Positions 4,279-53,460 of a DNA stretch of 64,000 nt are shown piece by piece (the first letter of the stretch is position 1; the number at the start of each line of letters is the position of its first letter). Origin of the DNA: an uncultured Bacteroidia bacterium (GTDB lineage: Bacteria; Bacteroidota; Bacteroidia; Bacteroidales; ML635J-15); contig CACYQN010000006.1 in NCBI GenBank assembly GCA_902776565.1, positions 154,709 to 218,708 of the forward strand. Direction: 5' to 3'. Position numbers and translations under genes: made by a program. The notes beneath the pieces are model-generated. The model was not told the origin of the DNA. It did not search any database and saw only the letters and a program-made list of their open reading frames with translations.

Positions 4279-4545
4279 GTTGTTTGATGGACTGACGCCC
4301 GTTTTAATGGCTGACGCCGTTTGAATGCCTGCGGCGTTTGAGAGTTTGATGGGCAAAGCCCGTTTCTGTGGCTGACGCCGTTTGAAGGTTTGATGGGCTG
4401 ACGCCCGTTTGAAAGGTTGTTTCTAGTTTTTCCGTTTCTAATCTCAAACCACTTCAAACCATCTTAAACAACCTTAAACAACCTTTAGCTCGCGCCAGCA
4501 ATTTCAAACAACCTCAAACAACTTCAAACATCCCCCCCCCATAAA
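4279..4545. repeat. Inverted pair of degenerate word arrays: GTTTGA-type units (4279-4440) facing TCAAAC-type units (4441-4535)
   Basis: Left: repeated TGGCTGACGCC(C)GTTTGAA(GG). Right: CTCAAACCACTTCAAACCATCTTAAACAACCTTAAACAACC...TTTCAAACAACCTCAAACAACTTCAAACA. Starts at the first nucleotide after the stop codon at 4278. Confidence 0.75.
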
Positions 4546-23923: not shown

Positions 23924-24529
23924 TTACCTTTTTAATAAATCAGCAAATAATTTCTCAAAATGTTCCTTAAACCATAATGGTGGATTATTTGTTACCTCGT
24001 GAATGCCATCTCTGCCAATGTGCAAAGCGACAACCTTTCCGAAATCTGAATTACCATCAATAAAAGTAATATTATCAAAAAGGCTTAAATTTTCTTTTGT
24101 TTTCTTCAAACCTTCATTAAAATTAAACCTAATCACATCGTCGTTAACATCATGTCCTCCAGTCTGATACCTCTGAATTACACGACAGACACTCTCATCT
24201 TCGGAATATAAACCGAAATAATACATCGAAATCTTAAAGTTTGCTTCCTTGAATTCCAATATCATATTTAGAACCAACTCGCTTGAAAAGTTCGTTTCAA
24301 ATGCAAAATCCGATTTATGTTCAATGGCATAATTCTTCTGCTTTTCCAATTCAGATGCAACCGTACCACTTATCCAATGTTCTGGCCAATCGGGATGCTC
24401 CTTGCGAAGATTCATTGCCAGTTTGTCTCCATCGAACGATTTGGTTCCGATATAAAATGGACAAAGCCGACTTTTTCCTGCCCCATTTGGACCAGCTACT
24501 ATTGTAAACTCCGGTCTTTTCTCCATCAC
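23924..24529 (-). CDS. Zeta-toxin / COG4185-like P-loop kinase (putative toxin)
   Basis: Walker A TIVAGPNGAGKSRL, FAFETNFSS block, RYQTGGHDVNDDVIRFNF block. The start is GTG 24529 or ATG 24526, immediately after the TAG of the upstream ORF. Confidence 0.7.
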   Translation of the reverse strand: MMEKRPEFTIVAGPNGAGKSRLCPFYIGTKSFDGDKLAMNLRKEHPDWPEHWISGTVASELEKQKNYAIEHKSDFAFETNFSSELVLNMILEFKEANFKISMYYFGLYSEDESVCRVIQRYQTGGHDVNDDVIRFNFNEGLKKTKENLSLFDNITFIDGNSDFGKVVALHIGRDGIHEVTNNPPLWFKEHFEKLFADLLKR

Positions 24530-24808
24530 CTATAATTTAATATGGGCAAATCTACCGCATCCGGGCTGTGCCGTGCGCATAATTATATTATATGTGCGAG
24601 TATTGCGATCAAGAATTACTTTATCTTCGCTACCATCAGGATTTGCAAGATATATTGAACCATCATCTCCGAAAAATGGTACGGAAAAACCTTTCAGCCA
24701 CGATTCTGCATAAATACGCTCAATCTCACGCCGAACCTCTTCGTTTACTTCCTTCACGGTTTTGCCATTCTGCAATTCAATATTTTCTATATCGCTGTAT
24801 TTGCACAT
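24530..24808 (-). CDS. 92-aa protein of unknown function, putative cognate antitoxin
   Basis: Directly abuts the toxin gene (stop TAG followed by GTGATG) and has its own TACCTTTG -7 box 15 nt upstream. No recognisable motif. Confidence 0.5.
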   Translation of the reverse strand: MCKYSDIENIELQNGKTVKEVNEEVRREIERIYAESWLKGFSVPFFGDDGSIYLANPDGSEDKVILDRNTRTYNIIMRTAQPGCGRFAHIKL

Positions 24809-25081: not shown

Positions 25082-25783
25082 CTACCCTTTCCTTAAATTT
25101 GCAATCGACAGCATCACGCCCAATACCACGCCGAGCAAGGCTGCAAAAAGCACCTGCAAGTTGGCGGGAAGCAGGAAGGTTATCGTATGCGCCGGGAACC
25201 AGAACAGCGGTATGTACTTCTTGAAAACCAAGCTCCACTGCGCCTTCCAGTTCAAACCGACGATAATCTGCTCCATCTTTATGGGACGGAAGAAACCGCG
25301 GAGAGTTCCACCGTTGTTAAGTATATGAGTGTCGGTAATCTTGTGCAAAGTCATAAATACCGGCGCGAAAATCGAGTTCATCGCCACACTGACAGCGAAA
25401 GCTACGCCAACCTTACCCCACGACAGTTCGCCAGCAAGCAGACCAGCCATCGTGCCTTTTTCGCATCCACCGACAATGTCAAGGAATGTCGGTACGCCCG
25501 ACTTGAAGATTATCATTGCCATGCAGATTCCCATACCGAGTATTCCCCACACAATTGCGCGTGGCAGTACGCCGAAACCTTTCTGGTTGTACACTCCCTT
25601 TGATATGCGCAAACCGAGCATCTCACCTACAGTCGCCAGTATCGCGAACTTGAAGAAACTCATTATGAACGGATGTGTCGCCGTCCACAGGTTGAAATAT
25701 TCGAGAAAGTGCGTCTGCGGAATGAAAAACGGTATCAGCACCACAATCACACAGATGATAAATATGAAATCTTGTTTTTTCAT
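25082..25783 (-). CDS. Polytopic membrane protein of unknown function
   Basis: 233 aa with about six hydrophobic segments. I do not recognise the family. Confidence 0.6.
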   Translation of the reverse strand: MKKQDFIFIICVIVVLIPFFIPQTHFLEYFNLWTATHPFIMSFFKFAILATVGEMLGLRISKGVYNQKGFGVLPRAIVWGILGMGICMAMIIFKSGVPTFLDIVGGCEKGTMAGLLAGELSWGKVGVAFAVSVAMNSIFAPVFMTLHKITDTHILNNGGTLRGFFRPIKMEQIIVGLNWKAQWSLVFKKYIPLFWFPAHTITFLLPANLQVLFAALLGVVLGVMLSIANLRKG

Positions 25784-25843
25784 TATTTTGTTTTTATAAG
25801 TTGTTCATTATTAAAAGCATGGGCACATTGAACGATTATTTGA

Positions 25844-25993
25844 GGAGATTCCGCATAAACGAATTCACAAGGCTCGTTCCTACGCCTGTTCATTCTGTTT
25901 TGCGGAATGACGGAATGGATGTCATTTCGGAAGGTATAATGAACCAGCGATACGGAACGGGGAGCTGAGTGAATTAACCTATCCGAAATCTCC
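25844..25993. ncRNA. Conserved four-way-junction structured element, copy 1 (strand and nature unknown)
   Basis: Stems GGAGATT/AATCTCC, CCGCA/TGCGG, AATGAC/GTCATT and TCGGA/TCCGA. The loop GATACGGAACGGGGA is conserved, and there are compensatory changes relative to 53025-53233. Confidence 0.45.
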
Positions 25994-25995
25994 CA

Positions 25996-26085
25996 CATTG
26001 CAACTCCTTGTTCTGTAAAAGCATAAGGCAATTTTCTCACCCCGCCACGATTTGAATTCATATTTGATATCGCATTTTGCGACAT
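25996..26085 (-). pseudogene. ORF6N-domain gene remnant (30 codons)
   Basis: Translates to MSQNAISNMNSNRGGVRKLPYAFTEQGVAM. LPYAFTEQGVAM is a signature block of ORF6N-domain proteins as I remember them. Similarity stops at the edge of the structured element. A second, stop-containing copy of the same segment lies at about 26150-26195. Confidence 0.45.
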
Positions 26086-26263
26086 CAAACATACCATCAA
26101 TCCTATTATCAGCATCATAACCATCTATAATACAATGATATAATCATTTTTCCCCGTTACATTTTGTCCAAATTGGATGTCGCAAAATGCGACTTCCAAT
26201 TTTTATCAAAAAAGCACAAGAACTTCCCAACGAAAGTCCCTGTGCCTATATGCCTTGAAAATA

Positions 26264-52694: not shown

Positions 52695-52761
52695 CGACCT
52701 CTCTGAGGTCGCTTTAATCGTGCGATAAACTTTCTATAAATATCCGACCTCTCCGAGGTCG
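52695..52761 (+). repeat. Left compound terminal inverted repeat (two hairpins CGACCTCTCTGAGGTCG and CGACCTCTCCGAGGTCG)
   Basis: The reverse complement recurs in mirrored order at 53333-53395, and the flanking CTATAAATAT / ATATCTATAG also match. Confidence 0.75.
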
Positions 52762-53024
52762 TTAAGTTCATCCAAATACAAGTCCACACATTTTGTTGTA
52801 CCATGTAAAAATCTGACACAGTGCATTTTTCACTAATTTGCAGAATCTTTAGCAGACAACAATAATAAAACAATTGACAATAATTCACATTTTTAATTTT
52901 TTGTATTCAAATCGTCACAGCCAATATTCCGTTCTACCTCTCTGTATATTAGCAAATTATAAGTGTAGATTATAAAAACATTGGGAACTGTATACAAGTT
53001 GACTAAAGAATGTACTACAGACAT

Positions 53025-53233
53025 GTCATTCCGCAAGTTAGAACAATAACGCGATACGAAACGGGGAGCGTAATATTGTTCAACTGTGCGGAATCTCCAA
53101 ATGAAAACGTTTTTATAGGAGATTGGCTGCGCCGAGCTAAAGGTGCCGCATAAACGAACTCACAAGCAACGTGCCTTATGCTGTTCGTTCTGTTTTACGG
53201 ACCCTTTAGTGCACGAAGCTTGCGAGTAATGAC
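53025..53233. ncRNA. Conserved four-way-junction structured element, copy 2 (circularly permuted relative to copy 1)
   Basis: GTCATT(53025-30)...AATGAC(53228-33) is the closing stem. Arm A runs 53031-53091 with loop GATACGAAACGGGGA. Hairpin AATCTCC(53092-98)/GGAGATT(53118-24). Arm B runs 53146-53200. Confidence 0.45.
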
Positions 53234-53332
53234 TCAGAGGGCATAGGAAAAAAGCACATTGTGTCAACACGTATATAGTTTCCAAAACATTTGCCTATTA
53301 GTAGAATCATTTGGTATTGTCTATGAAAAACA

Positions 53333-53395
53333 GACCTCGGAGAGGTCAAATATCTATAGTAAAAAAAGACAAAAAAAACGACCTCAGAGAGGTCG
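53333..53395 (-). repeat. Right compound terminal inverted repeat
   Basis: GACCTCGGAGAGGTC (53333-47) and CGACCTCAGAGAGGTCG (53379-95). Confidence 0.75.
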
Positions 53396-53411
53396 AACTA
53401 TTTATCATTGC

Positions 53412-53437
53412 AAAAAAAAGGGCGGAAAACTCCGCCC
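53412..53437 (-). terminator. Rho-independent terminator after the T9SS cargo gene
   Basis: Minus strand GGGCGGA-GTTT-TCCGCCC followed by TTTTTTTT. Confidence 0.85.
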
Positions 53438-53460
53438 TTTAATTTGTTATCGTTGTAAGA

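Follow-up and report, generated by a model that had tools for sequence, protein, structure and literature searches.

The 64,000-nucleotide stretch analysed here (the window), from an uncultured Bacteroidia bacterium, carries two copies of a module, and both belong to one family, whose ~150-160-nt members occur in Bacteroidales of the rumen and gut. The + strand of the module folds as a perfect four-way junction, and this fold is under selection. Judged by the ends and duplications that flank it, the module has spread as cargo of at least three types of MITE (miniature inverted-repeat transposable element), through cut- or copy-and-paste DNA transposition with 8-11 bp duplications. The explanation that we tentatively favour, with a probability of roughly 0.45, is that it may be a transposon-borne structured RNA acting in cis.

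The junction joins a pair of short arms, called X (6-7 bp) and Y (6 bp), to two long arms, A and B, of ~17 bp each. In each long arm an internal loop lies ~13 bp out from the junction, and the terminal loop is almost invariant (GAUACGGAACGGGGA on A, ACGUUCCUUA on B); the arm B internal loop, UCACA//GUUC, is invariant in the family. The two window copies are circular permutations of this one junction, with X closing copy 1 and Y closing copy 2. A sequence-only reading of the window had correctly recognized the same junction in both, without stating the permutation. In copy 1 it had placed X, the arm B base, AGGC/GCCT, Y, arm A and AGC/GCT as we find them, and the paired substitutions it listed against copy 2 are all present in the sequence. 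Its inner arm B pairing, AACGAAT/GTTCATT, was out of register and included a C.A mismatch, which disappears once the register is corrected. The segments TAAACGAAY and CTGTTTT, which it had described as unpaired, pair with each other, so that two of its three conserved unpaired blocks are in fact helix. The parts of copy 1, as read from the sequence, are as follows.

25844..25993, + strand: copy 1, X-closed module, in the order X5', arm B, Y5', loop, Y3', arm A, X3'
25844-50 with 25987-93, + strand: helix X, GGAGATT/AATCTCC, which closes copy 1
25851..25905, + strand: arm B as a whole, in the corrected register
25851-55 with 25901-05, + strand: arm B base helix, CCGCA/TGCGG
25856 and 25896, + strand: arm B bulges, T in each case
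25857-60 with 25897-900, and 25861-64 with 25892-95, + strand: arm B helices AAAC/GTTT and GAAT/ATTC
25865-69 facing 25888-91, + strand: invariant arm B internal loop, TCACA facing GTTC
25870-73 with 25884-87, + strand: arm B upper helix, AGGC/GCCT
25874-83, + strand: arm B terminal loop, TCGTTCCTAC
25906-11 with 25921-26, + strand: hairpin Y, AATGAC/GTCATT, with the 9-nt loop GGAATGGAT
25927..25986, + strand: arm A, with TCGGA (25927-31)/TCCGA (25982-86), AGGT/ACCT and TAAT/ATTA
Within arm A, + strand: internal loop GAACC facing GAGTGA, and AGC/GCT enclosing the terminal loop
25949-25963, + strand: 15-nt arm A terminal loop, GATACGGAACGGGGA

Copy 1 is bare, with no recognizable terminal inverted repeats, and nhmmer matched it as module B (25844-25911) and module A (25921-25993) on the same strand. 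Its fold has a z-score of -6.65 and that of copy 2 one of -5.99, with 0 of 200 shuffles as stable in either case; the predicted minimum-energy fold of copy 2 includes the Y, A and X helices. The earlier proposal of a conserved, folded nucleic acid rather than a protein is borne out. Helix Y is the closing stem in Y-closed relatives. Among X-closed relatives the Y loop varies (TCCAGAGAC, TATAGAGAC, CCTTTACC, GGTTGACC) and the stem is kept.

Covariation was assessed on an alignment (A1) of 33 simple Y-closed relatives with the revised arm B, which consists of the base CCGCA/URCGG, a one-base bulge and two 4-bp helices (e.g. AAAC/GUUU then GAAC/GUUC), topped by the UCACA//GUUC internal loop, a 4-bp helix and the loop ACGUUCCUUA. 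Arm A varies among subfamilies in its middle part, which aligns poorly, and claims for this arm are limited to its base and top. In the 33 relatives, 91.4% of the junction's cells are paired, compared with 80.4% in shuffles, and 24 pairs have changed on both sides. The junction's covariation score is 0.317 against 0.140 for shuffled alignments, a value reached by 0 of 500 shuffles, and slid controls score 0.04-0.11. Of the two arm B helices, one is 98.4% paired, with 8 of its 13 pairs changed on both sides, and the other is 100% paired, with 4 of 4 so changed. Across 56 distinct arms B we counted 902 Watson-Crick pairs, 38 G.T, 11 A.C and 1 other, with compensated variants AAAC/GTTT, AGAC/GTCT, AAGC/GCTT and AAGT/ACTT; AGCA/TGCT, CGAC/GTCG and AGGC/GCCT.

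Relatives show 96.5% pairing in helix X, where two pairs covary (GGAGATT/AATCTCC versus CAGATT/AATCTG). In arm A, X-closed members differ by compensated changes, with AGGT/ACCT replaced by AGTT/AACT and TAAT/ATTA by TGAT/ATCA. RNAalifold, run blind, returned the same four helices with 19 compensated pairs. Around these covarying helices lie ~60 near-invariant positions, mainly in loops. Both permutations retain all four helices, and the only places where extra hairpins have been inserted are junction corners, bulges or loops.

Partial homology between arms A and B allows a rod to form, in which the module's 5' half pairs with its 3' half. For copy 1, ViennaRNA gives the rod -60 kcal/mol and the junction -41.2 kcal/mol. 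The rod, although energetically favoured, shows no covariation above shuffles: it is 83% paired on the alignment and scores 0.102 against 0.097 shuffled, a value reached by 56 of 500 shuffles. In about half of the relatives the minimum-energy fold retains at least half of the junction pairs. The presence of covariation in the junction, and its absence from the rod, indicate that evolution preserves the local hairpins. A switch between rod and junction is possible but unsupported. We also considered two tertiary contacts and rejected both. Kissing between GGAACG of the A loop and CGUUCC of the B loop would use 6 complementary nt, but these do not covary, variants break the pairing, and the complementarity belongs to the rod fold. 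Pairing of UCACA with UGUGA of arm A occurs in some subfamilies only and is not a universal contact.

With respect to the strand that folds, G.T pairs are common on the + strand and occur in abundant variants, while A.C pairs are near-singletons, found in 1-3 arms each. An A.C pair on one strand is a G.U pair on the other, and this imbalance favours folding of the + strand as RNA, or of one specific DNA strand. The covariance model score is likewise about twice as high on the + strand as on the reverse strand. Support for + strand folding is moderate, as few independent events lie behind the counts.

The module had been described as a two-copy element. It is instead a dispersed family of well over 100 copies, much of it inside MITEs, and this alters what 'conserved with compensatory changes' means. 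The first genome scan used a 14-base pattern that was too short, and its 118 loci were mostly chance matches with ~13 true relatives, all in Bacteroidales metagenome-assembled genomes (MAGs) of rumen or gut origin and often several per MAG. A longer pattern returned at least 120 loci from a metagenome collection, nearly all in rumen samples. Relatives were fetched through the arm-A loop pattern (L-numbers denote fetched loci); the family's sequences share ancestry, and they include orthologous loci and loci duplicated between assemblies. Profiles of both halves were run with nhmmer over all fetched DNA, and more than 140 relatives were recovered among the matches listed: 105 units in A-then-B order (Y-closed), 8 in B-then-A order (X-closed, including copy 1), ~30 solo A hairpins and 3 solo B. 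X-closed units occupy at least seven different genomic contexts, and a MAG or contig holds two to four copies or more. A covariance model built from the relatives (R1) matches both window copies and nothing else in the 64 kb, copy 2 at 123.5 bits (E=2e-25) and copy 1 as two half-matches (8.5e-13 and 1.6e-08), these E-values being rough owing to a shortened calibration.

The earlier reading could not assign the element to a known RNA family, and this also held up. At Rfam 15 gathering thresholds the window yields three tRNAs only, with neither copy matching, and relaxing the limit to E<=10 brings up, at the two loci, nothing beyond weak noise of miRNA, snoRNA and terminator type that falls far short of threshold. 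The tRNA and transfer-messenger RNA (tmRNA) models of Rfam do not match at either locus, and the junction has no linker nucleotides. Literature searches by loop sequence and on the topics of permuted rumen RNAs, Prevotella MITEs and Bacteroidetes structured RNAs found no description of the module. Collections of plasmids and phages gave no blastn match to it, and one viral-contig pattern match proved to be unrelated sequence. We reject protein coding: only 1 of 113 copies overlaps a called gene. The claim that no frame stays open through both copies thus holds family-wide; copy 1 itself is crossed by a single open reading frame (ORF), a 113-amino-acid chimera on the minus strand.

The genomic placement of the copies differs between those with and those without MITE ends. 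Gene calls came from a home-made scoring of codon usage, with long ORFs as the training set. The 35 bare Y-closed units, which have no recognizable ends, lie mostly between co-directional genes and there are sense rather than antisense (19 versus 3, p=0.0009); MITE-borne units are evenly split (11 versus 11; Fisher p=0.02 versus bare units), prefer convergent gaps and are far from start codons. Convergent gaps hold 29 of the 79 Y-closed copies with both neighbours called. Bare units sit at median distances of 74 nt from the upstream and 46 nt from the downstream gene, and 11 of 24 end within 29 nt of the next start codon, often at 15-30 nt. At orthologous sites (L044/L124, L036/L167, L136/L158 and L136/L218) the flanks are 83-89% identical and the module 94-97%. 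Bare copies are thus more constant than their flanking genes, and they are sense-oriented in short gaps. The downstream genes, named from N-terminal translations, are unrelated (glycosyltransferases, YdcF-like, CstA-like, lipoproteins). We therefore reject a riboswitch or cis-regulatory leader, for which there is no functionally related gene set; MITE-borne copies lie in either orientation and copy 1 is antisense.

The MITE composites that carry the module are 250-370 bp long and non-coding, and their family end sequences are ATTGGTGTCCGCTAAAA, GGGAACTGTATACAAGTTGAC and ATGACTATCCGCAAT. Type i runs from GGGAACTGTATACAAGTTGAC to GTCAACACGTATATAGTTTCC; type ii consists of ATTGGTGTCCGCTAAAAAA, ~70 nt, the junction, ~10 nt and TTTTTAGCGGACAATAAT; type X surrounds X-closed units, from ATGACTATCCGCAAT to ATTGCGGATAATCAT. 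Direct repeats of at least 7 nt flank 17 of 30 type ii, 5 of 8 type i and 2 of 4 type X composites, compared with 8-14% of mismatched left/right control pairs (14% for the type i control). No parent insertion sequence, sought as matching ends 0.5-4 kb apart around an ORF, was found in ~1.7 Mb of fetched loci plus the window, and no transposase, HUH or recombinase gene recurs near the copies. Copy 2 is an example of a type i insertion, with the following parts.

53025..53233, + strand: copy 2, Y-closed module, in the order Y3', arm A, X3', loop, X5', arm B, Y5'
53025-30 with 53228-33, + strand: helix Y, GTCATT and AATGAC
53031-91, + strand: arm A, with loop GATACGAAACGGGGA at 53053-67
53092-98 with 53118-24, + strand: X hairpin, AATCTCC/GGAGATT
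53125..53145, + strand: small hairpin module GGCTGCGCCGAGCTAAAGGTG at a junction corner, between GGAGATT and arm B
53146-53200, + strand: arm B, with TCACA at 53160-64, loop ACGTGCCTTA at 53169-78 and GTTC at 53183-86
53201..53227, + strand: reverse-oriented small module ACCCTTTAGTGCACGAAGCTTGCGAGT, between arm B and AATGAC, able to pair with 53125-53145
52983..53283, + strand: the 301-bp MITE that carries copy 2
52983-53003 and 53263-53283: left and right terminal inverted repeats, GGGAACTGTATACAAGTTGAC and GTCAACACGTATATAGTTTCC, 17 of 21 positions complementary
52975..52982 and 53284..53291: left and right target-site duplication, AAAACATT

Repeats of the GGGAACTGTATACAAGTTGAC/GTCAACACGTATATAGTTTCC type also flank L091, L107, L126, L154, L208 and L239, in unrelated contexts. 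The sites found for the copy 2 locus are all occupied. A pairing of copy 2 with L205 as orthologous sites, both of which follow a TonB-dependent receptor gene, was withdrawn: the orthologues of L205 are L122, L171 and L177, and a target-site duplication of its own flanks copy 2. The small hairpin modules (...CGTGAGCTAAAGGT) are inserted in either orientation, though exclusively at junction corners, a bulge or loops. In simple relatives that lack the GGCTGCGCCGAGCTAAAGGTG module, GGAGATT runs uninterrupted into CCGCA, and modules of this type are present or absent at the orthologous sites L044, L124 and L128; reverse-oriented ones also occur in L036, L132 and L218.

Other small repeats lie near the module or resemble its parts. 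A hairpin, GACCTCnnnGAGGTC, occurs four times in the window (52697-52712, 52746-52761, 53333-53347 and 53381-53395), two copies just after the TonB-dependent receptor gene and two between the MITE and a convergent gene for a type IX secretion system (T9SS) tail protein, with wider flanking similarity (a 30-nt inverted repeat, 87% complementary); these are either bidirectional terminators or another small repeat family. A lone small hairpin module, TTGCTGGCGCGAGCTAAAGGT, identical in kind to those inserted in copy 2 and in many relatives, lies on the minus strand at 4481-4500 of the window, inside intergenic ~10-nt tandem repeats at 4441-4530 (GTTGTTTGARG-like; Tandem Repeats Finder periods 10 and 20), and looks like an independent tiny dispersed repeat. 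Solo arm-A hairpins (GTCAT-CGCGGA...TCCGCG-ATCTCC) occur in G+C-rich stretches (L145:700-1400, L077:380-670, L147, L204, L215, L232), interleaved with other short palindromes such as GGTTCCTCGCGAGGCTCGGAAC and CCTTAAGGTTTTTAAGGACCTTAGGG, in BIME-like mosaics of unrelated mini-repeats.

Copies also exchange parts. Between L122:10633-10793 and L177:4757-4913 (also L171) the flanks are 93-98% identical and the modules, of different subtypes, 82%; whole helices have been swapped in compensated form and a small module gained, which is direct evidence of exchange (conversion or replacement) between copies. In L170:1507-1784 the order is B, A, right MITE end, B, that is, an X-closed MITE with a solo arm B ~25 nt further on. 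Arm A there could close a junction with either B, as in a tandem intermediate able to yield the circular permutation.

Copy 1 lies at a strain-variable site. The sequence-only reading was accurate on its surroundings: copy 1 is 61 nt from the ATG at 25783, and the ORF6N remnant ends at 25996, at the copy.

25996..26124, minus strand: ORF6N gene remnant, outside the module and abutting the X3' end of copy 1

The remnant's Pfam match (E=1.2e-4, profile positions 55-82 of 86) is below the Pfam cut-off, and the chimeric ORF (25783-26124) consists of this ORF6N fragment plus read-through of copy 1. The downstream 233-amino-acid membrane protein is unchanged on 16 contigs, and among strains in which it is identical the module is absent from L241-L246 and L249 and present in L240, L247 and L248. 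Four arrangements occur. One has an intact ORF6N gene of 294-297 amino acids and no module (L241, L243, L244, L246), and another has neither (L242, L249). In the third, seen in L248 and the window, the ORF6N 5' part is fused exactly to the outer end of helix X, followed by the module and 29 nt, so that 584 bp of the intact allele are replaced and not cleanly interrupted. In the fourth a different upstream gene is joined at the same point (L247), a flank that L206 also has, its opposite side being different. These arrangements identify the module ends as rearrangement breakpoints. Antisense to both neighbours at a variable site, copy 1 is a poor leader candidate for the membrane-protein gene. 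It is more likely than not an inert remnant, left where recombination is frequent.

Two further features of this region were noted. GTCGCAAAATGCGAC palindromes lie at 26061-26094 and 26170-26195 of the window, one of them inside the ORF6N coding remnant (...MSQNAIS...). A pair of them persists in the ORF6N-less strains L242 and L249, which indicates that the ORF6N gene is itself present or absent among strains with an identical downstream protein. On the minus strand at 23924-24808, between the membrane-protein and PorP/SprF genes, a two-gene cassette encodes products of 92 and 201 amino acids, the latter with a weak Zeta_toxin Pfam match. It occurs in the window and L240 and is absent from L241, and is a strain-variable, toxin-antitoxin-like insertion.

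Under the cis-acting RNA reading, read-through transcription would let three local hairpins form in order, giving the junction instead of the deeper rod. The compact RNA might then act in cis on its transcript as a processing or stability module, by blocking nucleases or by cleaving itself, and such action could make insertions tolerable or useful. Copy 2 would be a MITE-borne insertion in a convergent gap, and copy 1 an antisense and probably inert relic. This reading is favoured by the sense bias, tight intercistronic placement and in-place conservation of bare copies, by the asymmetry between strands, and by the fact that insertions keep to points where they leave the structure intact.

Several observations weigh against it. 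Transcription of the module is predicted only, and of 91 distinct flanks 6 have the exact Bacteroidetes-type promoter motif TAnnTTTG within 120 nt, without a preferred position; the promoter rule applied to these uncultured Bacteroidales is assumed from Bacteroides. For most relatives the nearest-neighbour model puts the minimum-energy fold 3.5-36 kcal/mol (median ~17) below the junction. The G.U asymmetry rests on a few abundant variants and by type is ~8 versus ~8. The sense bias is nearer 15 versus 3 when independent contexts are counted, several loci being orthologous, and the home-made gene calls lie behind the 19-versus-3 count. Gene conversion between copies could partly explain the higher in-place conservation. 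The arm-A loop reads exactly GATACGGAACGGGGA in 126 of the 147 recovered arms with a readable loop, an invariance that is partly a retrieval effect, as this loop served as the retrieval pattern. Most X-closed copies, copy 1 among them, run antisense to the genes beside them. No recurrent partner protein was found within 2.5 kb; big secreted proteins formed the largest clusters, at 7-9 loci each.

The strongest competing explanation, which we consider doubtful but worth serious attention, places the function in DNA. The junction, formed in single-stranded or extruded DNA, would be a cis site for movement or recombination, a Holliday-junction mimic bound or cut by a junction-specific protein or transposase, and RNA would be irrelevant. 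Movement in MITEs with target-site duplications, the random orientation of MITE-borne copies (11 versus 11), the strain-level breakpoints at both ends of the X-closed module and the exchange of arms among copies all fit such a site. So does the junction itself, which has no unpaired bases and is two-fold symmetric in sequence (ATT-CCG twice, CGG-AAT twice), and whose A/B homology would let it branch-migrate into the rod; solo arm-A hairpins, moreover, sit in arrays of other small palindromic repeats. RuvC prefers to cleave at (A/T)TT↓(G/C), a preference that the module's ATT↓C presumably fits. However, DDE-type MITEs normally need their ends only, and here three end types share one core, with no transposase, HUH or recombinase gene recurring nearby. 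Nor would a transposition signal predict what the bare copies show, since these lack ends and are nevertheless kept in place, strongly sense-biased and above the conservation of flanking genes. Abundant G.T and rare A.C pairs, too, point to the folding of one specific strand. We think it quite improbable that the fold is an unselected by-product of MITE palindromy, that is, of long inverted repeats and recent ancestry. The sequence is largely self-complementary end to end, the rod is the minimum-energy fold in many members, the copies are closely related and non-independent, and 29 of the 79 Y-closed ones with both neighbours called lie in convergent gaps as ordinary dispersed repeats do. Nevertheless, covariation backs the local arms and not the rod, and conservation is higher in loops than in stems, contrary to the pattern of decaying palindromes. 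Orthologous copies also exceed adjacent coding DNA in conservation, insertions are confined to structurally neutral points, and all four helices are kept in both permutations.

Among readings in which the RNA is active, a new self-cleaving ribozyme would have its active site where the A and B loops dock across the junction, and cleavage would separate or trim cistrons. The main hint is that both circular permutations occur. In small RNA motifs, natural circular permutation is known chiefly for hammerhead and twister, with 5S rRNA and group II introns also listed (PMC10085705). The ~60 near-invariant positions, mainly in loops around covarying helices, the dispersed and unrelated gene contexts of a multi-copy element tied to mobile DNA, and the location of bare copies between cistrons would all suit such an activity. 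The perfect four-helix junction with two loop-bearing arms also recalls the hairpin ribozyme. We nevertheless judge the proposal rather unlikely: cleavage is predicted only, the ribozyme models of Rfam give no score even at E<=10, the arms that bear loops stand opposite each other and not side by side as in the hairpin ribozyme, and the GGAACG/CGUUCC loop complementarity shows no covariation and is broken by variants. It also counts against a ribozyme that many candidate motifs with similar signatures failed to cleave (PMC10085705). The broader suggestion of a new catalytic or active RNA class, likeliest self-cleaving, with two permutations and serving as MITE cargo that installs RNA processing sites between genes, is also unlikely. 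Finally, we regard it as very improbable that the module is an independent gene for a trans-acting small RNA, equipped with a promoter and terminator of its own. Copy 2 does occupy a convergent gap, with terminator-like hairpins after it (53333-53446), and TTTG occurs 10-13 nt upstream of some X-closed copies. Yet no promoter is conserved (TAnnTTTG in 6 of 91 distinct flanks, no peak), the flanks of bare copies are unrelated with many copies wedged 15-50 nt from coding sequences, and the hairpins near copy 2 belong to a separate GACCTC...GAGGTC repeat that also follows another gene.

If the cis-acting RNA reading is true, small transposons carry a selected RNA fold that hosts keep between genes, providing a route for mobile DNA to rewire operon expression in the rumen microbiome. 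The module would then be a well-supported, abundant structured RNA that is absent from Rfam and among the very few natural RNAs with circularly permuted forms. Even if the function lies in DNA, the family is a new MITE superfamily with a Holliday-junction-like core, whose copies mark strain-level rearrangement points and are useful in annotating and assembling Bacteroidales MAGs.

Comparison with known ribozymes shows partial likenesses. Like the natural form of the hairpin ribozyme, the module is a four-helix junction without unpaired bases and with two loop arms that could dock. It has neither the loop A (AGAA / A↓GUC) nor the loop B consensus that this ribozyme carries on adjacent arms, its loops being UCACA//GUUC, ACGUUCCUUA and GAUACGGAACGGGGA; it also differs in having no Rfam match, in its opposite loop arms, and in residing in a bacterial chromosome rather than in circular satellite RNAs. 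In twister-sister four-way variants, a terminal loop contacts the internal loop of another arm, and by analogy a contact of A-loop GGAAC with the invariant arm B GUUC is conceivable; unlike twister-sister, the module has no Rfam match at E<=10 and its conserved sequence differs. As with hammerhead and twister, the module is naturally permuted (PMC10085705), scattered and multi-copy in unrelated gene contexts. Unlike them, it lacks CUGANGA...GAAA or another conserved core as well as an Rfam match, and has a different architecture.

The closest parallels are MITEs and modular repeats with folding transcripts: Correia elements of Neisseria, ERIC/IRU of enterobacteria, BOX/RUP of pneumococci and REP/BIME of E. 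coli. Like these, the module is small, non-coding, multi-copy and intergenic, prefers the 3' sides of genes, has terminal inverted repeats, target-site duplications and sub-modules that come and go, and recombines between copies with breakpoints at its ends; co-transcription would be a further likeness. REP/BIME elements are 20-40-nt imperfect palindromes with a conserved stem and a 5' tetranucleotide, mobilized by RAYT. The module differs from them in its 70-160-nt unit, in conserving loops and not stems, and in having no recurring transposase-like neighbour. To our knowledge, no described MITE combines a covarying core, permutations and orientation-biased end-less copies. Unlike in all of these repeats, the conserved part of the module is an internal 150-nt core under three end types, and not the ends; the module combines near-invariant loops with covarying stems, occurs in two circular permutations, and has an end-less subpopulation that is orientation-biased and conserved in place.

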